This document shows positions 4,910 to 61,907 of a DNA stretch of 64,000 nucleotides, one piece after another. The position numbers and the translations under genes are program-made. Within the stretch, counting starts at the first letter, position 1; each line of letters begins with the position of its first letter. The DNA is from Nanobdellota archaeon (lineage in GTDB: Archaea > Nanobdellota > Nanobdellia > Pacearchaeales > GW2011-AR1): positions 119,797 through 183,796 of the forward strand of contig JAJZAH010000001.1 of NCBI GenBank assembly GCA_021799535.1, read 5' to 3'. The notes under the pieces were generated by a model. It did no database searches and was not told where the DNA came from. It was given only the letters and a program-made list of their open reading frames with translations.

Positions 4910-5766
4910 CCTCTCCCCATTAACTTTTTCATATACAGCGCTCCTCCATCCTGGCTATCCCTGGATTCAGAAATCAAGGTAGGGGTCATTTTAAATTCTT
5001 TTATAACTGGAAGAAAATGTTCAAATTTTGGGAGATATTCTTCTTCAAAGTAAGCCCTATGCTTCTTTTCACCTTTGCTGTTAAATTCAACAGGATAAAA
5101 ATGACAATGAACCTTCTTTAGTTTTTTCATGCCAATCTGTTTTTTCACTTTCAGAAGAAGACTTTTGAAGTCCTTCGCCGAATTAAGTATCCCTCCTCTT
5201 GAATGTATATGCCCAAAATCAAGGCATGGCTCGCATCCGGTTCTCCTGCATATCTCAAGAATCTCATCAAGACTTCCAACTTGGGAAAATTTTCCCATAG
5301 TTTCGGGGAGGATTTTCACAGGACCCTTGTATCTCTTTTTAACCTCTTTTATTCCTTTGACAATTCTATCTATAGGATTGCCGGAGTTATGGAATCCCGG
5401 ATGGAAAATAATTTTCTCTGCCCCCATTATTTCTGCGAGATTTAACGTCTTGACCATCTCTTTAACGGAGTTCTCAAAAACACCTTCTTTTTCAGAAGTA
5501 AAAACTATATAATAAGGCGTATGAACTGAGAGAGCGATACCTAGTTCTTTTGCCTTCTTCCCAATTTGCTCTGCAACTTCGGGGGCCGTTTTAGCGCCAT
5601 AAGTCATCAGATACTCATAAGCATTAAGCCCTATTGAGCTTACCCACTCAACAGCATTCACCCTCTTCTTTCCGAGCTTCGATTTAAAAAAATTCGGGGG
5701 GGTTCCACTCGTCCCGTAATGTGTCTCAAGTGTTTCCATTTTCCTCTTTAGACTTATTTTCATCAT
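4906..5766 (-). CDS. nfo: Endonuclease IV (AP endonuclease family 2, TIM barrel)
   Basis: Motifs SVHTPYYIVF, IIFHPGFH, ILPETMG and CLDFGHIHSRGG parallel E. coli Nfo LPHDSYLINL, LNFHPGSH, VIENTAG and CIDTCHAFAAG. Overlaps both neighbouring genes by a few codons. Confidence 0.65.
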   Translation of the reverse strand: MMKISLKRKMETLETHYGTSGTPPNFFKSKLGKKRVNAVEWVSSIGLNAYEYLMTYGAKTAPEVAEQIGKKAKELGIALSVHTPYYIVFTSEKEGVFENSVKEMVKTLNLAEIMGAEKIIFHPGFHNSGNPIDRIVKGIKEVKKRYKGPVKILPETMGKFSQVGSLDEILEICRRTGCEPCLDFGHIHSRGGILNSAKDFKSLLLKVKKQIGMKKLKKVHCHFYPVEFNSKGEKKHRAYFEEEYLPKFEHFLPVIKEFKMTPTLISESRDSQDGGALYMKKLMGRG

Positions 5767-7351
5767 GATACAATTTCACCTTATCCTCGCCGGTTTCAAA
5801 ATCAAGAATCTTTATCTGCCTAGTTTTTAGATTTATCATGGGAACCTTGCAGTGATCAGGAGTATTACCAAACTTTTCCTGATAAGGAGTAAGACCTTCC
5901 CAACTCGACGCTGAAACAATTAGAATATTATTAAAGTACGCAACCCCACTCTTATGTGTGTGACCAGAGAGAAATATATCTGGTGTGTCTTTAATGACTA
6001 AAGGATCACTTTCAAGAGGGAGATATTGCGCTGAGGTATGAGTTGGCGCAAGATGCCGATTTTTAAGAAGGTACTTCATGATTTTCTCCGGCTGATTCAT
6101 AGCTTTCTCTGATATGAGGGAAGGAATAACATTCGCATAAAAAGGAAAAGAAAAGCCATGATAGATCAAAACATTAAACCCGTCAAAAGTATTACTCTTC
6201 CCGATATTTACTGTTGAAGGGTTGCTTACTAGTATTGCATTTTCCAATTCATAAACAGGCCAAGCATATTTTTCATCAAGAGGGGGTTGCGGCTCGGCAA
6301 GTCTGACACCATCATGATTCCCGGGAGAAATTATTATAGTAATGTCTTTTCTTATTTGACCAAGAAGGTCGGCAATCCCCCGAAATTGCGCTTCAAGGTC
6401 GATGATTTTCAAATCTGGTTCTTGATCAGGGTAGTTACCGATCCCAGTGACAAGATCGCCTGCAATGAAGAGATATTTTATATTTTTCACTTCGGGTGTC
6501 CCTTGAACCTTCCCATTAAGATAATCTATAAATTTCAGAAAATCCTTCTCGAGGAAATTTTTGCTGCCATAATGTATATCTCCAAGGAAAAGAGCATATT
6601 CCTCAGCATCGGACCTTTTGCGTTCGGGAAGAGTTGCTTCAGGAAAGAGTATCTTATTTGCAAAAAGGATTTCCTTATTACCGGTTCCCTGAAAGCCCAA
6701 AACAGAATCCAAAGTAATCTCGTCAGCATCCTTAACCAGGTCTTCCTTACCAGAGCTCACAAGAACTTTCATTTTACCTGTGAGATCCTCTATTTCAAAG
6801 ATTAAGTTCTTATTTTTCGTGACTTGCTTGTCTGAAACGATTCCTATGACCGAAAATTTTTGCTTTTCGCCAGAGATTTTGCTTATTGAAACAAGATTCT
6901 CAAGCTCAGGACAGTTTTGGAGCAAATCTTTCATAGATTCATACCTGCCTCGAAAATGATTCACAAAATCCTTGACTTCAGGCTTCTTATCTGATTGGTA
7001 AAATGAATAGAGAACTTTTACCTTCCTTTGAGAAGAGGAAAGATTTTCCCTGCTCCTTTTTTGCTGTTCTTTTATGTAAATAGACTCATCAGAGAGATCT
7101 AATTTTGAGTAAAGATCCTCTCTCTCAGGGTCTTCTTTTGGAAAAAATTCACTGGCAAATTTACCCACCTTATCAGAATTTTTTTTTATCAGAGAGAGGG
7201 TTATAAATCTCTTTCCAAGAGTAACCTTAACTTTATCAAGAAAAGCCTCAAGAAGCGAGACATTTTGAAAGGAAGAGAAAGCATTCAGGAGAGCTGCATC
7301 TAGGAGAATGTTCTTTTTTATACAAATTTTCTGAATTTCTTCCTGCTCCAT
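5726..7351 (-). CDS. DNA polymerase II (PolD) small subunit DP1, calcineurin-like phosphoesterase
   Basis: 541 aa. Phosphoesterase motifs GDIHYGS, FIAGDLV, GNHD and GHTH. Adjacent to cdc6 and DP2. Confidence 0.8.
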   Translation of the reverse strand: MEQEEIQKICIKKNILLDAALLNAFSSFQNVSLLEAFLDKVKVTLGKRFITLSLIKKNSDKVGKFASEFFPKEDPEREDLYSKLDLSDESIYIKEQQKRSRENLSSSQRKVKVLYSFYQSDKKPEVKDFVNHFRGRYESMKDLLQNCPELENLVSISKISGEKQKFSVIGIVSDKQVTKNKNLIFEIEDLTGKMKVLVSSGKEDLVKDADEITLDSVLGFQGTGNKEILFANKILFPEATLPERKRSDAEEYALFLGDIHYGSKNFLEKDFLKFIDYLNGKVQGTPEVKNIKYLFIAGDLVTGIGNYPDQEPDLKIIDLEAQFRGIADLLGQIRKDITIIISPGNHDGVRLAEPQPPLDEKYAWPVYELENAILVSNPSTVNIGKSNTFDGFNVLIYHGFSFPFYANVIPSLISEKAMNQPEKIMKYLLKNRHLAPTHTSAQYLPLESDPLVIKDTPDIFLSGHTHKSGVAYFNNILIVSASSWEGLTPYQEKFGNTPDHCKVPMINLKTRQIKILDFETGEDKVKLYHDENKSKEENGNT

Positions 7352-7365
7352 CTTTTAAATTTCAA

Positions 7366-8583
7366 TCAGGAATAGACCATATTTTCCCTGATAATTTCTT
7401 TAGCTTTATTCAAGACGGGTCCTGAAAGAATGAGTTTAATTTCTCTCATCCTTCCCCCTCTGCCTTTTGAAATGACCCTGACATTTATAATTCCAAGCAT
7501 ATCAAATTCCTGGATTATATCTCCCACTCTTCTTTGAGTAAGGGGTTCGATCTTATAGAGGGTGCAAAATCTCTGATAATTGGAATAAACATCCCCTGTA
7601 AACAAAGGGATTCCTTCTTTTTCTTCAGAAAGGAGAATGATTGAATTAAGAACCATTTGGAATTGCTTTGGATGATTAGTAATAACGTCAAGAATTTTGT
7701 CTCTCTCAATTTTACTTTTTGCTTCATCTATATGCTTCAAAGTGACTCTCTTTTCCCCTTCTCTTTCCGCAAGCTCCCCCGCCACCCTTAAAAGGTCAAG
7801 AGCTCTCCTTGCATCCCCTGATTCTCTCGCAGCATAGGCAGCGCACTTGGCAATTACACCACTGCCAAGAACATTGTCCTTAAAAGCACCTTCAACCCTT
7901 TTAGCAAGAATGTCCTGAATTTGAACTGCATTATAAGGAGAAAAGACAATTTCTTCTTCAGAGAGTGAACTCTTGACTCTTGGATCAATATTTTCAAGGA
8001 AAGTAAGATCATTTGAAATGCCCACAAGAGATATTTGGGATTTTGAAAGCTCAAAATTCAGCCTAGTAAGGTTATATAAAAAGTTATTTGAGATTTTCTT
8101 GACTAATTGGTCAATTTCATCAAGGATTAAAATAACCAACTGTTTTCTCTGTTCTATTAATTCAATGAATCTACTGTAAACTGCCTGCGTTGGAAGCCCT
8201 GTGGCAGGAATTTCACCCCCCAGCTGCCTTATAATTTCAGCAAGAATTCTATATTCTGTATCAGCAACTTGCTTTAATTTACAATTAAGATATTGTATCT
8301 TTAACTCAAAACCAGAATCGCTATTTTTCTGCATCCTTTTCTCAAGAGCCTCCTGCACTTTGAGGATAGAAAGAGTCTTTCCTGTTCCAGTATTGCCATA
8401 AAGAAAAAGGTTACTTGTTTTCTCTCCTCTTAAGACAGGTGCAAGAATAGAAGCAATTTGCTTTATTTCTTTTTCACGGTGAGGAATTTCCTCAGGCATA
8501 TAATTAGACTGCAGGAGAAATTTATCTTTAAAGATATTATTCTCGTCAAAAGAATCAAAGATTTCATCAAGATCATCTGCCAT
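7366..8583 (-). CDS. cdc6: Orc1/Cdc6 replication initiator (AAA+)
   Basis: Walker A LYGNTGTGKT, Walker B ILDEID, C-terminal winged helix. Archaeal Orc1 length of 405 aa. Confidence 0.85.
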   Translation of the reverse strand: MADDLDEIFDSFDENNIFKDKFLLQSNYMPEEIPHREKEIKQIASILAPVLRGEKTSNLFLYGNTGTGKTLSILKVQEALEKRMQKNSDSGFELKIQYLNCKLKQVADTEYRILAEIIRQLGGEIPATGLPTQAVYSRFIELIEQRKQLVILILDEIDQLVKKISNNFLYNLTRLNFELSKSQISLVGISNDLTFLENIDPRVKSSLSEEEIVFSPYNAVQIQDILAKRVEGAFKDNVLGSGVIAKCAAYAARESGDARRALDLLRVAGELAEREGEKRVTLKHIDEAKSKIERDKILDVITNHPKQFQMVLNSIILLSEEKEGIPLFTGDVYSNYQRFCTLYKIEPLTQRRVGDIIQEFDMLGIINVRVISKGRGGRMREIKLILSGPVLNKAKEIIRENMVYS

Positions 8584-8635
8584 TTTTTCACCTTGGGTTT
8601 TACTAATGGAAGGCTCAAAAAAGAGACACGTTTAT

Positions 8636-8647
8636 TTCCTATGGAAA
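8636..8647. repeat. ORB-like element TTCCTATGGAAA
   Basis: Palindromic core matching the TCCAnnGGAAA core of archaeal origin recognition boxes. A second copy lies 19 bp downstream and a third at 9161. Confidence 0.45.
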
Positions 8648-8665
8648 ATCTCTTGTCTGAGTAAA

Positions 8666-8677
8666 TTCCAACGGAAA
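8666..8677. repeat. ORB-like element TTCCAACGGAAA
   Basis: See 8636. Confidence 0.45.
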
Positions 8678-9160
8678 AAAATGAAAACATTATATAAAAG
8701 ATTATGACTACTAAAAAAGAAAGACACCTTAATTTCTAATGGAGAACAATTATTTTTGCCCTCTTTAACATAAAAGTCTAACACAAAAGATCGAATTCTT
8801 TTTAAGAGAACCTTTTTACAAAGTTCTTTGAACTTTTGAACCAACAAAAGCCTATTAAAAATCTATTAATTCCATAATTAATTAGTTAATTAATTAAAAT
8901 TCAATTCCCCTTGGATCAACCTTTATTATTTATTATATTAGCCTTCCAAGATTCTTTCAGAAAGAGACTTACAGAATAAATTTACATAAATTTTTTCTTT
9001 TAATATATATAATTGATAATTTTCTTTTGATTTAAAGTGAGGGTTTAATTGAAGAAATTATTGAAAATATAACAATTCTTTTTTGATTTATATAATTAAT
9101 AATATAAAATTTTTTAAATGAAGTAAAAAAACAAGAAATCAGATCCTTAAAAAATAATAT

Positions 9161-9172
9161 TTCCAAAGGAAA
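9161..9172. repeat. ORB-like element TTCCAAAGGAAA
   Basis: See 8636. Lies on the far side of the AT-rich candidate DUE. Confidence 0.45.
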
Positions 9173-9395
9173 TAATGGTGTCAGGTTCTCTGCCACCTCT
9201 TTTGTATATAAAATATAATATTTGATTTCTAAATAATTCTTATTTATATATCTTTAATTTAATTTTAAAGTAATGATAGTATGAAGAAAAGACCCCCGAA
9301 TAAATTTCTTTTAAAGTCTTCTTTCAACAAACCTCAAAAAGAATATTATTCTTTAATTTAGATAACTTTATAAATAAATTATTTCTAACAAAGGT

Positions 9396-57141: not shown

Positions 57142-58239
57142 ATGGCACATTTTTATGAATCTGTTTTAATAGATACTATTGATGGTTTTCAATGTAAATC
57201 TTATTCAAATGAGCATCCTGATGGATATATAATTGTGAAGCCCAAATATATTCCTGGAGGAATGTTAAAAGGCGAGGGCTTAAAATATCGTTTTTTATTT
57301 GAAAAATGCTTAATAAGGTTCAATTTGTTTGCACAAAAAGATAAACTAAAGGATTATGTCAGTCAGTTCAGAAAAAAATTCCCAGATTATATATATGAAG
57401 ATAAAAATTCCAAAAACTGGTTTTTTGTTGTTCCGAAAGATAAGATAAAAGAGGTTCATGACCCAAGAAAAGGGCTCAGGGAATTAATGAAAGTCCCTGA
57501 AAGGGACTTGGACTCTTATTTAAAAAATGTGAGAGAATTGATAGATTTTTTAGAAAAAAGCGGGGTGAAGTCCGAATCTATGGGCATAACGCACTCAACT
57601 TTACTTGGGAATTATACGCCTGGTAAATCGGATATAGATATAATTATTTATGGGAAGAATAATGGCTGGAAAATACTTAATTACCTGAAAACAGCAGAAC
57701 ATGAAAAGCTTCATTGGAAGACTGATGAAGAATGGACGGAGTATTATAAGGAGCATAAGACATCAGAGTCATCACATTTTACACAAGAGGAGTATGTAAA
57801 ACATATGAGAAGGAAAAGGTACGAAGGAATGTTTGGAGGCAATGTATTTACCCTTTTCACAGTAGAAGAACCAGATGAAACTTGGTTTAAATGGGGAGAA
57901 GAAAAATATGAACCTCTTGGAACGGTTACAATAAAGGGCAAGGTTACTGATCATTACAATAGCCATGTGAGGCCTGGTTTTTACGAAATAAATAATGCAG
58001 AGATACTAAAAACGGAAGGAATAATCCCAACTGATCCTTCAATTGAAATAAAAAAGATAGTTACCTTTTCTATTCCTTTTGTTCAGCAGGCGATTAAAGG
58101 AGAAGAAATAAGTGCATGTGGGCTTCTTGAACTCGTAACTCCCAGGGTCGGAAAGAAATATTATCGTGTCGTCGTAGGTTATTTTGATGCTTACCTTAAT
58201 GAAAGGAGGGAAAAAGAATTCATAAAAGCTTTAATTTAA
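57142..58239 (+). CDS. Pol-beta-superfamily nucleotidyltransferase-fold protein (LicD/fukutin-like candidate), paralog 1
   Basis: GITHSTLLGNYTPGKSDIDIIIYG matches hG[GS]-x9-13-DhDh. Conserved N-terminal YSNEHPDGYIIVKPKYIP and C-terminal YYRVVVGYF blocks are shared with the next gene. Confidence 0.4.
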   Translation: MAHFYESVLIDTIDGFQCKSYSNEHPDGYIIVKPKYIPGGMLKGEGLKYRFLFEKCLIRFNLFAQKDKLKDYVSQFRKKFPDYIYEDKNSKNWFFVVPKDKIKEVHDPRKGLRELMKVPERDLDSYLKNVRELIDFLEKSGVKSESMGITHSTLLGNYTPGKSDIDIIIYGKNNGWKILNYLKTAEHEKLHWKTDEEWTEYYKEHKTSESSHFTQEEYVKHMRRKRYEGMFGGNVFTLFTVEEPDETWFKWGEEKYEPLGTVTIKGKVTDHYNSHVRPGFYEINNAEILKTEGIIPTDPSIEIKKIVTFSIPFVQQAIKGEEISACGLLELVTPRVGKKYYRVVVGYFDAYLNERREKEFIKALI

Positions 58240-58240
58240 G

Positions 58241-59329
58241 ATGTACTTCCCAGAGTCTTCTATTATCACAACTAAGGATGGACTTCAGTGCCTTGTATAT
58301 AGTAATGAACACCCAAATGGTCGTCTAATTGTAAAACCAAAATATATCCCTACTGATAAAATTTCGAGTGATGCCCTTCCATATAGATTTATTCTTGGAA
58401 AGAAAGTCAATAGATTGGATCTTTGGATTGATAGAGTAAGTCTGCAGAAGTATTTTAGAGACTTTGCAAAGGCTTATCCTCATTACATATTTAAAAGTGA
58501 TGTCCATAACCCGGATTTACACTTCTTTAGCGTCCCTAAAGAATACATTGACAAAATTTATTCACCCAGAGAAGGCTTAAAAGAACTTATGGCAATTCCT
58601 TACAAGGATCTTGATGAACATTTAAAGAAAGTTGTTGATCTTGTTAATTTTTTTATTAAGAGTGGGCTAAAACTTGATAATTTCGGTGTGACTTATTCAA
58701 CAATTATGGGATATTATTCTCAGAACATGTCTGATATCAACGTCGTCGTTTACGGGAAGAAAAATTTCTGGGCACTTATGGAGTTTTTAGAAAAGCATAA
58801 ACATCCAGATTTGAGGTGGAAAACTTACAATGAATGGGAGAGTTTCTATAAAAAAAGGAACAGGTATATTCTTCAGGACAAAAAGGATTATCTTGAAAGG
58901 ATGAATAATAAGAAATCTGAAGGTTTTTTCAGAGATACTCTATTTGTTGTTTTTGGAATCGAAAATCCAGATGAAACTTGGTTCAAATGGGGGGAAGAAA
59001 AATACAGGAAGATTGGAGATGCAAAATTTAAGGCGCTTGTTAATGGGAATATAAACTCTGTTGTAAGGCCCGGCTGTTATGAAGTTGAAAAATGCAGATT
59101 TATTGAAGGAGATAATTCATGTAAAAATTTAAACATAGAAAAAGTTGTTTTTTATTCAAGAGATTATTGCATGCTTGCATTTCCAGGAGAAACCATAGAG
59201 TTTAAAGGTGTCGTGGAAGAAGTTTCAAAAAAAACGGGAGAAAAGTATTATCGGGTTGTCGTGGGTTATTTCGTTTCTCATATCAACGGAAATAGAGATA
59301 ATGAATATATAAAAGTTATAAAAAAATAA
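58241..59329 (+). CDS. Pol-beta-superfamily nucleotidyltransferase-fold protein, paralog 2
   Basis: GVTYSTIMGYYSQNMSDINVVVYG, with the same N- and C-terminal blocks as paralog 1. Confidence 0.4.
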   Translation: MYFPESSIITTKDGLQCLVYSNEHPNGRLIVKPKYIPTDKISSDALPYRFILGKKVNRLDLWIDRVSLQKYFRDFAKAYPHYIFKSDVHNPDLHFFSVPKEYIDKIYSPREGLKELMAIPYKDLDEHLKKVVDLVNFFIKSGLKLDNFGVTYSTIMGYYSQNMSDINVVVYGKKNFWALMEFLEKHKHPDLRWKTYNEWESFYKKRNRYILQDKKDYLERMNNKKSEGFFRDTLFVVFGIENPDETWFKWGEEKYRKIGDAKFKALVNGNINSVVRPGCYEVEKCRFIEGDNSCKNLNIEKVVFYSRDYCMLAFPGETIEFKGVVEEVSKKTGEKYYRVVVGYFVSHINGNRDNEYIKVIKK

Positions 59330-59330
59330 G

Positions 59331-59876
59331 ATGGAAAAGGGATGTAATTTATGCGATGAATCCAAACTGGATTTGGGTGAAAAGACGCCGTATGGAGCAA
59401 AGGTAATCTATAAAAAAGATGGATGGTTTGCCACACTTTCTCCTAAGACGGGTGGTAACCCCGAAAAAGACTTTACGGTTCAATTGATGCCTATGGGTCA
59501 CTTAAATCACATTTCTGAAATTTCTAAAAGTTTAAATCTTGCTAAAAGTTATGGGATTGCTTTTTCAAAAATAAGTAAAGCTGTGACAAAGATTATGGAA
59601 TTAGAGAATCGTTCCTCTGAAAACGATGAAGGGATAATTCGAGTTGGGACTTATGGAAAGTCTAAACATCCTGAAGAGCATTTTCATATCAAGATTTTCC
59701 CTTGGACAGGTAATATTGGTCAACCATACACTGTAGATTCTACTTTTGAACATAGCAGAAGATATACCGACAAAGATGGAGAAGCTTTTATAAAAATGAA
59801 ACCCGTGGAAAAAATGATGATTAAACCAGAAAGAATGCAATATTTATCAGATAAGCTGATTTCTTTTTTAAAATGA
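59331..59876 (+). CDS. HIT-superfamily-like protein with variant H-x-H-x-K motif
   Basis: N-terminal CNLCDE, VIYKKDGWFATLSPK...FTVQLMPMGH and EEHFHIKIFP follow the HIT-family layout, but the third His of HxHxHxx is replaced by Lys. Confidence 0.4.
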   Translation: MEKGCNLCDESKLDLGEKTPYGAKVIYKKDGWFATLSPKTGGNPEKDFTVQLMPMGHLNHISEISKSLNLAKSYGIAFSKISKAVTKIMELENRSSENDEGIIRVGTYGKSKHPEEHFHIKIFPWTGNIGQPYTVDSTFEHSRRYTDKDGEAFIKMKPVEKMMIKPERMQYLSDKLISFLK

Positions 59877-60619
59877 CCTTTCATGGTTTAAATGAGATTG
59901 AAAATGATTATCAAAATATAAAGTGCAATTTTCAAAAAAAGAATAATTTGCTTGAAGCTTATAAAATAGCTGATCAAATTTTAATGCATGATAAAACAAT
60001 GAGGTCTATTTTTAAATTTCTGATTCGTTCTTTTGAAGGCAAATTAAGGAATGATAAGAAAACCCCTCTTGTTTTTCATTCTATCTATATGACAAGACTT
60101 ATGAATTTATGCGGCGGAGAGGATATAGATAGTTTGCTTATTGCCTCCCTCCATGATTTATTAGAGGATACGGATGTATCTGAAGAAGAACTTAAGCAAG
60201 AGGCATTCATGAAAAATAAAAGAGACGTCATAAACAGCTTAAAAATTTTAAAGGAAGATAAAAATCTTTCAAGAGAACCAGATGGGATCAACCTCCCTCC
60301 AAGATATCTCGAACATATCAGTAGGATTATTGGTGCAAAGAGGGAAGTTATAAATACTGAAATTCTGGATCGATTTTCAGATTTAATGGATTTGGAGTAC
60401 ATTCTTGATCTTCCTGAGAAAGAGAGGGATTTAAGACTCAGGGCAAAATTACTCAAGGTAAAAAGTTTTGTTTATAATATAATAAAAAACAGGAATGATT
60501 TCAATAAAAATTGTTTAAATCTTTTTGAATCAAAAGTTTCAGAAATTGAGTCCAAATATCATTTGAAAGGAAAAATACAGCAAGTTTCTAAAGCAAAGGG
60601 GGAACCTATTTCTTTTTGA
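59873..60619 (+). CDS. HD-domain hydrolase of the SpoT/Mesh1 ((p)ppGpp-hydrolase-like) type
   Basis: PLVFHSIYMTRLMNL...DSLLIASLHDLLEDT parallels SpoT YILHPLAVACILAEM...TLMAALLHDVIEDT (H...HDxxED). Confidence 0.55.
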   Translation: MTFHGLNEIENDYQNIKCNFQKKNNLLEAYKIADQILMHDKTMRSIFKFLIRSFEGKLRNDKKTPLVFHSIYMTRLMNLCGGEDIDSLLIASLHDLLEDTDVSEEELKQEAFMKNKRDVINSLKILKEDKNLSREPDGINLPPRYLEHISRIIGAKREVINTEILDRFSDLMDLEYILDLPEKERDLRLRAKLLKVKSFVYNIIKNRNDFNKNCLNLFESKVSEIESKYHLKGKIQQVSKAKGEPISF

Positions 60620-61406
60620 AAGAACTTTTTTGTTTATATCTCTTTTTAATCCTTTTATTTAGTTCTAGGGCATACTTATAAAGCTTGTAATCTAAGGGGT
60701 TGTCTCTATAGATCATCTCTCTTATTTTTTCGTTGGTATCAATTATTTTTTTCCTGTAAGTTGAAGATCTTTCCCATTTTACCCCTTTTATTCCCATCAA
60801 CTTGAAAAGGAATTTCGAATCTTCTTTGCTATTTTCAATTATAGCAACAAAATGGCATTTGTCCAGAAATATCTTTGCATTTTCTAAATCCTTATTTGTC
60901 TGGGAATAAGGATGAACCTTCCTGATTGAACTTTGTAAAAAATTGGACATTTTGTACCCAATCTTAATAAATTTCAAAAAAAATGCCAAAATTTTTGGAA
61001 TTTTTATATGAGACGACTCGGAGCCCTGTAATTTTAAATTGTAAAAACGAACTAGCTCATTTTTCGGTTGTGATTTATACCATTTTTCAAAAGGTACAAT
61101 TTCAGATCCCGGGTAATTCTTAAACTTTTCATTATAAAAAGAGACTATCCTTTCTGCAGGGTCCCTTAAAAAAGTGAAATATATTGGCTTTTTCCCAGAA
61201 AACTCTTGGTGTATTCCGTAATATGTTGCATGGCCAAGGATGAATCTTGCTTTTTTTTTGTCAAAATCTGGACTTTCAAATCCGTATCTGATATTTGACG
61301 GGACTATTATCTCCTCTTTTGGAACTGACTGTTTAATATAAGTTATTAAGCTTGTTCCGCCCGTCCTCGGAGCGTGTATAAATATCCATAATTTGTTGTC
61401 TTTCAT
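60606..61406 (-). CDS. Sulfotransferase-family protein
   Basis: IHAPRTGGTSL resembles the 5'-phosphosulfate-binding P-K-[ST]-G-T-T loop. Confidence 0.5.
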   Translation of the reverse strand: MKDNKLWIFIHAPRTGGTSLITYIKQSVPKEEIIVPSNIRYGFESPDFDKKKARFILGHATYYGIHQEFSGKKPIYFTFLRDPAERIVSFYNEKFKNYPGSEIVPFEKWYKSQPKNELVRFYNLKLQGSESSHIKIPKILAFFLKFIKIGYKMSNFLQSSIRKVHPYSQTNKDLENAKIFLDKCHFVAIIENSKEDSKFLFKLMGIKGVKWERSSTYRKKIIDTNEKIREMIYRDNPLDYKLYKYALELNKRIKKRYKQKSSFKKK

Positions 61407-61532: not shown

Positions 61533-61907
61533 ATGGATTTATGGAATTTCCTTCATGGAGAGAAAAAAGTAGTCTCGAAGTTCGAAGGGAAAGATGTTGA
61601 ATCAAAAATAAGATTTACGGATTATAACCCAAAGACAAGTGTCTTCCGTGCAGAAGGAAATGATGAATGCGGGGACTTCGAAGTTATCGGTTCTCTGAGA
61701 GATGGCACGGTAGGATTTTACAAATTTTATAAGAGATTCCCTGTTCCATCAGGGTCAAAGTCCGCAGACCTTCTCGGAGAGGGTTATAAGTCTTTTAATT
61801 ATTATGGCTCTTATGTAGAAGACTTATCAGGAAAGTATTTTTCCGGTTTATGGAAAGAAGGCAACGCTGTGATTCCTGACTGGGGCAAGTGGCAGATGGC
61901 TTTATAA
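61533..61907 (+). CDS. Hypothetical protein
   Basis: 124-aa ORF with G/Y/W-rich short repeats. Confidence 0.25.
   Translation: MDLWNFLHGEKKVVSKFEGKDVESKIRFTDYNPKTSVFRAEGNDECGDFEVIGSLRDGTVGFYKFYKRFPVPSGSKSADLLGEGYKSFNYYGSYVEDLSGKYFSGLWKEGNAVIPDWGKWQMAL

Follow-up and report, generated by a model that had tools for sequence, protein, structure and literature searches.

A conserved nucleotidyltransferase and HIT gene set with a possible role in surface-glycan sulfation in DPANN archaea

Gene content and protein families of the block

The window (the whole 64-kb stretch of DNA analysed here) contains a block of five genes, at positions 57142 to 61406, inside an agl-type cell-surface glycan cluster of a DPANN archaeon. 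An earlier note on this DNA, made from the letters alone, had described a five-gene nucleotide-handling block in the agl cluster, and the block is real. Its genes are:

57142 to 58239, plus strand: NT1, a nucleotidyltransferase of the Pol-beta fold, extended by a small beta domain at the N terminus and an OB-fold domain at the C terminus
58241 to 59329, plus strand: NT2, paralogous to NT1, its active site degenerate (Y-S ... S-D-I-N)
59331 to 59876, plus strand: HIT-fold variant in which an N-terminal CxxC precedes the motif E-H-x-H-x-K (H117, H119 and K121)
59873 to 60619, plus strand: Rel/SpoT/Mesh1-type (HD_4) metal-dependent phosphohydrolase, assigned by profile and PDB matches and catalytic residues, and a putative 3'-phosphatase of 3'-phosphoadenosine 5'-phosphate (pAp)
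60606 to 61406, minus strand: PAPS-type sulfotransferase (Sulfotransfer_2, PF03567), convergent with the HD gene

NT1 has the active-site motif H-S ... S-D-I-D and shows the features of the Pol-beta superfamily, namely hG[GS]-x9-13-D-h-[DE]-h and, further downstream, a third carboxylate, carried on the alpha/beta core of that superfamily. It is conserved at 50-87% identity across several phyla. NT2 is 41% identical to NT1, and the two are paralogues, as had been proposed. No Pfam match was found for NT2, in which three substitutions (D166 to N, H151 to Y and Y126 to H) are present in all 34 paired loci. The second carboxylate expected of an active Pol-beta enzyme is therefore Asn in 34 of 34 NT2 orthologues; at this second Asp of D-x-[DE], NT1 and 110 distant relatives have Asp in 100% of cases. 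Judging by these residues, NT1 is the catalytically competent paralogue of the pair, and NT2 probably acts as a partner subunit, either altered or without catalytic activity. The LicD/fukutin-type identity first suggested for the two proteins was abandoned, as PF04991 was unmatched, the GTLLG...DDDID core is absent and no LicD/FKRP structural match was obtained. A CD-NTase/cGAS/OAS identity was also rejected: PADLOC CBASS and Pfam profiles did not match and the full-length cGAS-like fold was not found.

The MJ1086-type "predicted nucleotidyltransferase" family of methanogens, Thermoproteota and Korarchaeota shares with the DPANN proteins a three-domain architecture and a set of invariant positions (H25-P26, Y36-x-P38, G-S...S-D-I-D, E246, P278, Y281, G327 and E330). 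MJ1086-type genes are single-copy, retain the canonical G-S motif and are located in methanopterin/methanofuran clusters or fused to HPPK. In the DPANN clade, by contrast, duplication has given an active and a degenerate member, and the genes keep company with HIT and PAPS genes. The location of the MJ1086 group outside sulfur clusters counts against a sulfate-activating role for NT1 and NT2. The distant relatives adjoin CitG-like genes in cofactor-biosynthesis clusters, suggesting small-molecule phosphodiester chemistry.

The HIT-like protein has the HIT alpha+beta fold and lacks the histidine triad (H-phi-H-phi-H-phi-phi, or H-x-H-x-Q in the GalT branch). Its motif, E-H-x-H-x-K-I-F-P, is invariant, with the first two His kept and the third replaced by Lys in 30 of 30 sequences, which agrees with the variant motif noticed earlier; none of the 30 matches a Pfam HIT-clan model. 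HIT superfamily transferases (Ap4A phosphorylase Rv2613c, yeast Apa1/2, Fhit and GalT) differ in carrying the third His (Gln in GalT), and also in that the DPANN protein either forms a fusion with a degenerate NTase or is invariably its neighbour. Yeast Apa1/2 is an Ap4A phosphorylase and also an ADP-sulfurylase. Altogether, two of the three NT1-NT2-HIT protein families have no Pfam match and the third merely touches a generic domain model.

The HD protein matches Pfam HD (E 4.6e-4), HD_4 (E 0.012) and TIGR00691 (E 3.9e-5), the last two below their curated cut-offs (15.8 against 27.2 bits and 22 against 499 bits, respectively), and some of its homologues carry a precomputed PF13328 match. All 13 profile matches are RSH-type hydrolases. 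Its sequence relatives in the PDB are exclusively Rel/SpoT-type and small alarmone hydrolases; the best is the (p)ppApp hydrolase 7smg (E 3.7e-5), and Rel and Mesh1 are also matched. Residues 23-157 align with Rel_Tt, catalytic residues included, and 25 homologues all keep R59, H69, H94-D95, E98-D99 and D166-R167. This R...H...HDxxED...D(R) constellation is common to the Rel/SpoT hydrolase domain and to the small alarmone hydrolases (Mesh1 and the (p)ppApp hydrolase Aph1), enzymes that hydrolyse nucleotide phosphate esters at the 3' (or 2') position. The reported resemblance to SpoT/Mesh1 hydrolases thus holds at the level of catalytic residues and of match type, with scores that do not reach the family cut-offs. 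Unlike Rel, SpoT and Mesh1, the protein has 248 aa with extra N- and C-terminal helices.

The sulfotransferase matches PF03567 (E 3.8e-9, 37.5 bits against a cut-off of 22). Its PDB match, a heparan-sulfate 2-O-sulfotransferase, spans the 3'-phosphate-binding motif RDPAERIVSFY, and the translation contains a 5'-PSB-like HAPRTGGTS, so that score and both motifs place it in Sulfotransfer_2.

Conservation of the gene set and exchange of the phosphatase

The NT1-NT2-HIT core recurs in at least 65 species-representative DPANN genome loci (Woese-, Nano-, Aenigmat- and Iainarchaeia), and in more than 300 protein clusters. Gene order was counted over the 58 loci with at least 2.5 kb downstream. The NTases are followed by HIT in 50 loci and by a ProRS-like gene in seven (together 57 of 58), and 57 of the 58 carry a phosphatase from one of three unrelated folds. 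The position after HIT is taken by PHP in 45 loci and by HD in nine, with IMPase/CysQ-like genes in four; PHP and HD never occur together in the 58 loci. A PHP representative matches NF041577, the 3',5'-nucleoside bisphosphate phosphatase (5e-44), and in two loci (L017 and L051) an IMPase/CysQ fused to APS kinase (Inositol_P 1.7e-50 and APS_kinase 4.5e-45) replaces PHP or HD. Fusions join NT2 to HIT (P0125 and the 570-aa gene of L121), HD to NT1, and Phosphodiest to HD and NT1 (P0122). Of the NTase-NTase-HIT-HD neighbourhood that the earlier note had singled out, the first three genes are therefore kept, and HD itself is one of several occupants of the fourth place.

Here, plainly, phosphatases of three unrelated folds replace one another at a single position of the operon, which makes the SpoT/Mesh1-type HD a candidate pAp phosphatase. 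Its equivalence in position to PHP and IMPase/CysQ, together with the mutual exclusion, argues that pAp is, on balance, its substrate. Alternatively, the NTases could make a 3'-phosphorylated, cyclic or oligo nucleotide acting as a second messenger that the SpoT-like HD (or PHP) degrades. Such a system would suit a relative of small alarmone hydrolases whose best PDB match is a (p)ppApp hydrolase, as well as the HD-NT1 fusions, which follow the Rel/SpoT order of hydrolase then synthetase, and the presence of cGAS-like and OAS structures among the NTase fold matches. However, PADLOC, CD-NTase and RelA-synthetase signatures were not found, the NTase motif is the canonical GS/DxD rather than the RelA type, HD is never paired with a RelA-type synthetase, and no conserved effector or sensor gene lies nearby. 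The occurrence of HD in no more than nine of the 58 loci, its exchange for pAp-phosphatase-type PHP and IMPase/CysQ, and the adjacency of APS kinase and sulfotransferase genes, point to metabolism instead, and we regard a second-messenger function as very improbable. Scarcely more probable is RNA or tRNA end modification. On that reading the OB-fold NTases would lengthen or shorten an RNA by nucleotides, with HIT processing adenylylated or capped ends in the manner of aprataxin or DcpS and PHP serving as an RNase AM-type 5'-3' exonuclease or a 3'-phosphatase; the association with glycan genes would be incidental.

Links to PAPS metabolism

In 25 of the 58 loci an APS kinase (PF01583, E 2.9e-49) is a neighbour or a fusion partner. 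In the reverse direction, starting from DPANN APS kinase, there are five close metagenomic loci whose flanks are long enough to use, and all of them adjoin NT1/NT2. Sulfotransferase homologues adjoin NT1 in four loci (L004, L051, L052 and L121), and sulfotransferases accompany HD-type loci in the window and in L004, L052, L065, L120 and L121. These neighbours indicate that the module probably belongs to PAPS metabolism. Of the earlier interpretations, glycan decoration of the sulfo type gains support from them; the LicD and second-messenger versions do not. PAPS synthesis in the window organism is putative, since no APS kinase is present in the 64-kb window or in the nine HD-type loci (0/9, against 21/45 PHP loci; Fisher p 0.009).

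The bona fide APS kinase genes, the IMPase/CysQ-APS kinase fusions and the PAPS-type sulfotransferases imply the same pathway logic as the canonical PAPS cycle (Sat or CysDN, CysC, PAPS sulfotransferase and CysQ). The module differs from that cycle in its constant element, a Pol-beta NTase pair with a variant HIT, and in its proposed pAp phosphatase, PHP or SpoT-like HD. Neither Sat motifs (QxRNPxHxxH, GRDHAG) nor a CysN motif were found in the window or in about 1 Mb of loci. The lack of an adjacent sulfurylase is weak evidence, because more distant APS kinase loci likewise have no adjacent Sat. NT1, NT2 and HIT are unrelated in fold to ATP sulfurylase (Sat) and CysDN, and a sulfurylase role for them would be one by analogy, not by membership.

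Convergent, non-homologous pAp phosphatases have a precedent in archaeal sulfate pathways: the assimilatory pathway of Methanothermococcus thermolithotrophicus uses a non-canonical DHH-type PAP phosphatase, MtPAPP (PMC10322725). There too the enzyme comes from an unrelated phosphoesterase family and was spotted through its gene neighbourhood. That pathway serves sulfur assimilation with a canonical ATP sulfurylase (PMC10322725), whereas the DPANN module has HD, PHP or IMPase phosphatases, a glycan-decoration context and no visible sulfurylase. Surface-glycan sulfation in Halobacterium salinarum is likewise encoded inside an agl cluster, N-glycans being sulfated by the alkaline-phosphatase (AP)-superfamily sulfotransferases VNG1056C/VNG1057C (PMC11980604). 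This agrees with the presence of Phosphodiest and Sulfatase genes on the flanks of NT1 in 29 of the 58 loci; the window, in contrast, has a classical Sulfotransfer_2 enzyme and no AP-superfamily gene. This recent haloarchaeal paper does not address the sulfate donor, and a term search of passages from it found no mention of NT, HIT or HD genes (PMC11980604).

Proposed mechanism and significance

We tentatively read the block as a glycan-sulfation module of a DPANN agl-type cluster, in which HD would clear pAp and NT1, NT2 and HIT would supply activated sulfate. An activated sulfate nucleotide would be formed, first APS and then PAPS; the sulfotransferase (60606-61406) would pass sulfate to a glycan or lipid-linked sugar and release pAp; and HD would strip the 3'-phosphate to give AMP, a task that a PHP 3',5'-bisphosphate nucleotidase or IMPase/CysQ would perform in other DPANN genomes. 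The active NT1, the degenerate NT2 and the H-x-H-x-K HIT would most likely provide the nucleotide-activation step for which no canonical enzyme was seen. That this step is sulfate activation is a possibility we hold with more reserve than the module reading. It could proceed by adenylyl transfer from ATP to sulfate or, alternatively, through an adenylylated intermediate from which HIT exchanges AMP onto sulfate via His119-AMP, while K121 positions the anion. Making APS is energetically very unfavourable, and we know of no Pol-beta NTase or HIT protein that does so physiologically. The need for three proteins also counts against sulfate activation by NT1, NT2 and HIT.

The core is tied more tightly to the phosphatase (57/58) than to APS kinase (25/58), so the NT/HIT product could be a 3'-phosphorylated nucleotide rather than APS. 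A sulfation or phospho-decoration module could then exist in which NT1, NT2 and HIT either draw on a 3'-phosphorylated nucleotide donor (PAPS, CoA or a 3'-phospho-NDP-alcohol) or assemble an acceptor or head group in nucleotide-activated form by LicD/GalT-like phospho- or nucleotidyl transfer. If pAp were their direct by-product, the obligatory adjacent 3'-phosphatase would be accounted for. The HIT fold, shared with GalT-type nucleotidyl exchangers, and the cofactor-cluster setting of the distant NTase relatives are in line with this, as are the CDP-alcohol phosphatidyltransferase-like, Phosphodiest, LtaS/sulfatase-like and sugar-1-P nucleotidyltransferase genes of many loci. However, the searches gave neither a LicD signature nor structural matches to LicD/FKRP, no candidate enzyme for making such a donor recurs consistently, and the window locus has the full core and a sulfotransferase yet no CDP-alcohol or AP-superfamily genes. 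We consider this reading rather unlikely. Returning to sulfate activation, its boldest form, which we put forward as doubtful, is that the NT1/NT2 heterodimer with its OB domains and the H-x-H-x-K HIT may be a third, previously unrecognised type of sulfate-activating enzyme that replaces ATP sulfurylase in DPANN and feeds glycan sulfation; HD, on the same view, would represent a pAp 3'-phosphatase of a new class, in which the fold of alarmone hydrolases has been co-opted for the housekeeping of sulfur nucleotides.

DPANN archaea are abundant, mostly uncultured organisms with small genomes that depend on cell-surface contact with their hosts, and NT1-NT2-HIT is among their better conserved multi-gene sets. 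Given its association with PAPS enzymes and sulfotransferases, surface glycans bearing sulfate could be widespread in DPANN. NT1, NT2 and HIT offer a specific candidate for the sulfate-activation step that is missing and, more generally, a possible route by which the donor is supplied in archaeal glycan sulfation. If the core acts otherwise, it would still be a conserved enzyme system with a built-in pseudo-enzyme partner.

A five-gene block in an agl-type cluster

The five closely packed ORFs at 57142-61406 of the window are arranged as follows.

57142-58239, + strand: NT1, a Pol-beta-fold nucleotidyltransferase (NTase) with a C-terminal OB-fold domain
58241-59329, + strand: NT2, its paralogue
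59331-59876, + strand: variant HIT-fold (HIT-like) protein, 181 aa
59873-60619, + strand: Rel/SpoT/Mesh1-type HD protein, 248 aa
60606-61406, - strand: sulfotransferase, 266 aa, convergent with the HD gene

The spacing of the four co-directional genes is 1 nt, 1 nt and -4 nt, and the block described in an earlier note on this DNA is confirmed with one correction, the absence of the second active-site Asp from NT2. Its flanks encode two GT1 glycosyltransferases, an FkbM methyltransferase, a sugar-1-phosphate nucleotidyltransferase, epimerases/dehydratases, a Wzx-type flippase and a GT4 phosphosugar transferase, so its placement inside an agl-type cluster was right. Independent contigs from JGI, Logan and ENA carry the locus too. 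An ORF of 124 aa (61533-61907, + strand), situated between the genes for the sulfotransferase and the flippase, is without match in Pfam, NCBIfam or PADLOC; among the loci compared, it was seen in none but the contigs matching the window (L001 and L002).

NT1 and NT2 share 41% identity along their whole length. NT1 matches NTP_transf_2 (E = 5.6e-4), slightly below the Pfam cut-off, and the profile libraries give no match for NT2. In the 34 loci with both paralogues, the motif of NT1 is constantly H-S...S-D-I-D and that of NT2 constantly Y-S...S-D-I-N, plus Y126->H; the GS...DIDI site attributed to both proteins thus does not hold for NT2. The second Asp is 100% conserved among 110 distant NTase relatives and missing from NT2 in all pairs, which points to NT2 as an ancient partner whose active site is degenerate or altered, and not a second equivalent enzyme. 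Homologues of NT1 form more than 300 clusters, mostly 50-87% identical, and the named ones come from MAGs of Woesearchaeota, Nanoarchaeota, Aenigmatarchaeota, Pacearchaeota and Iainarchaeia. Neither NTase matched LicD, NCBIfam or PADLOC, and the suggestion that they are LicD/fukutin-type phosphotransferases is rejected, Pfam and structure comparison both being without match. PADLOC gave no match for any of the six proteins scanned; anti-phage defence or CBASS is rejected on this ground, and the idea of a second-messenger synthase/hydrolase pair does not survive.

The H-x-H-x-K motif noticed in the HIT-like protein is a feature of the whole family, in which an N-terminal CxxC, H57 and E116-H117-x-H119-x-K121 are invariant. 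Searches of Pfam, NCBIfam and PDB with the single sequence, the profile or all 30 members found nothing. In an hhalign alignment to FHIT, H119 falls at the nucleophilic His96 and K121 at His98, but neither this comparison nor that with HINT1 is significant, and they suggest the motif register only.

The HD protein matches Pfam HD (4.6e-4), HD_4 (0.012) and TIGR00691 spoT_relA (3.9e-5), and its top PDB match is the (p)ppApp hydrolase 7smg (3.7e-5), with Rel and Mesh1 ranking next. A family profile retrieves 13 PDB sequences, each of them a Rel/SpoT/Mesh1-type hydrolase (best 2.4e-5). Invariant in the family are R59, H69, H94-D95, E98-D99 and D166-R167. With 54 clusters the family is small; judging from its few named members and their neighbourhoods, it appears confined to DPANN-type archaea.

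Gene content of the module across DPANN loci

A scan of species-representative genomes yielded 65 module loci, and gene content was counted by tblastn and ORF clustering in 58 loci with at least 2.5 kb downstream. The NT1-NT2 pair is present in 52 of the 58, and the gene directly after the NTases encodes the HIT-like protein in 50 and a ProRS-like protein instead in seven. A phosphatase of one of three unrelated folds is found in 57/58 loci. It is usually a PHP protein (45 loci), whose representative matches PF02811 and, in NCBIfam, '3',5'-nucleoside bisphosphate phosphatase' (5e-44) and RNase RNM (2e-44), both below cut-off. SpoT-like HD proteins occur in nine loci and IMPase/CysQ-type proteins in four, among them L017 and L051, where APS kinase fusions replace PHP/HD. 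PHP and HD never share a locus. The HD-type loci are the window locus, L004, L043, L048, L052, L054, L058, L060, L120 and L121. Gene fusions link the parts of the module to one another: P0125 and a 570-aa gene of L121 are NT2-HIT fusions, P0121 is an HD-NT1 fusion and P0122 a Phosphodiest-HD-NT1 fusion. The last arrangement, in which a Phosphodiest domain of the alkaline-phosphatase superfamily, SpoT-like HD and NT1 follow one another within about 1090 aa, was also seen in L043, L048 and L058 (about 5760-9077).

Several other genes accompany the module. The ProRS homologue (L028, L032, L061-L064, L066 and L067) is full-length and archaeal-type, takes the HIT position after NT2 or after a single NTase, and reaches 438 and 372 bits, the TIGR00408 cut-off being 437; it may be either the housekeeping ProRS or a paralogue substituting for HIT. 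P0141, a metagenomic fragment, has it fused to the NT2 C-terminus. Upstream of NT1 in L045, L047, L049, L050, L062 and L063 is a gene for a truncated protein resembling pyruvate kinase, with an HTH at its N-terminus and otherwise only a half barrel and PK_C (196 bits; cut-off 306), possibly a metabolite-sensing regulator and not a kinase. Two small ORFs are without Pfam match: one of 86 aa with a ribbon-helix-helix-like N-terminus, upstream of Phosphodiest in ten loci (L016, L021, L030, L037, L039, L041, L042, L053, L056 and L059), and one of 97 aa, PQ-loop/semiSWEET-like with two to three TM segments, beside NT1 in five (L009, L019, L026, L046 and L053). L060 (JAGXBC010000002.1) has NT1-NT2-HD without a HIT gene in a MAG labelled 'Patescibacteria group bacterium', which may mean that the MAG is wrongly binned or labelled, or that CPR bacteria have acquired the module by transfer.

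Links to APS kinase and sulfotransferases

An APS kinase gene (PF01583, 2.9e-49) lies beside the module or is fused to one of its genes (PHP-APSK, IMPase-APSK) in 25/58 loci. In a reciprocal search with the DPANN APS kinase, NT1/NT2 was the neighbour, with or without HIT and PHP, in all five of the close metagenomic loci whose flank was usable. A motif scan for Sat/CysN signatures found none in about 1 Mb of module loci and likewise none around distant APS kinases, and is therefore a weak negative control. No HD-type locus has a nearby APS kinase (0/9, against 21/45 PHP-type loci; Fisher p = 0.009), and there is none in the 64-kb window; either these genomes encode the enzyme at another site, or the module functions in another way in its HD variant.

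The window sulfotransferase scores above the Sulfotransfer_2 threshold and has recognisable 5'-PSB and 3'-PB motifs, the latter aligning with heparan-sulfate 2-O-sulfotransferase; given this match and these PAPS-binding motifs, it should bind PAPS, a 3'-phosphorylated donor. In 13 loci the module has a classical sulfotransferase-like gene beside it, and six HD-type loci are among these (the window, L004, L052, L065, L120 and L121). Genes of the alkaline-phosphatase superfamily are also common neighbours: a Phosphodiest gene is present in 29/58 loci, mostly directly upstream of NT1, and sulfatase-like genes in about 12; a test of whether Phosphodiest genes and classical sulfotransferases exclude one another was not significant (p = 0.27). 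In Halobacterium the N-glycan sulfation enzymes are alkaline-phosphatase-superfamily proteins, and sulfation is encoded within the agl cluster (PMC11980604). By that precedent, the Phosphodiest and sulfatase-like neighbours of NT1 are plausible candidate sulfotransferases in loci without a classical one. In L120 (about 6354-9332), an HD-type locus, genes for a Sa_NUDIX-domain protein and a Metallophos phosphoesterase lie between sulfotransferase/HD and NT1, and add to the nucleotide-hydrolase genes that accompany the module.

Proposed function

One operon slot is thus common to three non-homologous phosphatases, alongside APS kinase and sulfotransferases. Enzymes of the slot are known or annotated for removing the 3'-phosphate of nucleoside 3',5'-bisphosphates or the 3'-diphosphate of alarmones. 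The simplest reading of this combination is a PAPS cycle, in which PAPS would give a sulfated acceptor and pAp, and pAp would be converted to AMP. We consider it probable that the module belongs to PAPS-linked metabolism, and with slightly less assurance favour the HD protein as a putative pAp phosphatase. What survives of the earlier functional proposal is sulfo-modification with clean-up of nucleotide by-products. Archaea offer a precedent for an unrelated phosphoesterase taking on the role of pAp phosphatase, namely MtPAPP, a DHH-type enzyme found via its position beside ATPS and APSK genes (PMC10322725). It would also fit if the reaction of NT1, NT2 and HIT itself released a 3'-phosphorylated nucleotide, since the phosphatase is a tighter partner of this core than APS kinase is (57 against 25 of 58 loci).

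Within the PAPS-cycle reading, the absence of Sat/CysN signatures from the roughly 1 Mb of loci scanned makes a putative sulfate-activating step the likeliest single role of the three proteins, though we propose it tentatively and at less than even confidence. NT1 would transfer an adenylyl group from ATP; HIT would perform or complete the transfer to sulfate via a His119-AMP intermediate, the anion being bound by K121; and NT2 would be a scaffold tethering HIT, a role suggested by the NT2-HIT fusions. Ap4A phosphorylases of the HIT/GalT branch interconvert ADP and APS, so such chemistry is not foreign to the HIT fold. APS formation is strongly endergonic, and we know of no Pol-beta or HIT enzyme for it in vivo.

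An RNA-directed function, a minority view, draws on the OB fold and TENT-like core of the NTases and on the ProRS-like substitute for, or fusion in, the HIT position. The distant relatives of NT1/NT2 (MJ1086 family) bear on the substrate. They comprise 587 clusters at E<1e-10 and are single-copy genes (MJ1086 and those of Vulcanisaeta, Korarchaeota and others), either with neighbouring MCH, FTR, MTD, Fae, CitG-like, ATP-grasp and MfnB genes or fused to HPPK. Their setting suggests that the family acts in an unassigned cofactor-biosynthesis step, and the ancestral chemistry of the superfamily was probably small-molecule (cofactor) phosphodiester formation; a small-molecule substrate, not specifically sulfate, is therefore favoured for the DPANN branch. 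L071 (the MJ1086 locus), L072, L117 and L118 are methanopterin/methanofuran C1 clusters that also hold Fwd subunits, their MfnB-like neighbour being a 4HFCP synthase-type gene, and in P0220 the relative is fused to HPPK beside a pterin-binding DUF. Literature searches on MJ1086, COG1665, DPANN sulfation and methanopterin orf22 found nothing relevant. As judged from sequence and gene context, the module represents a previously undescribed, DPANN-wide variant of a putative sulfation pathway, with an uncharacterised three-protein core.
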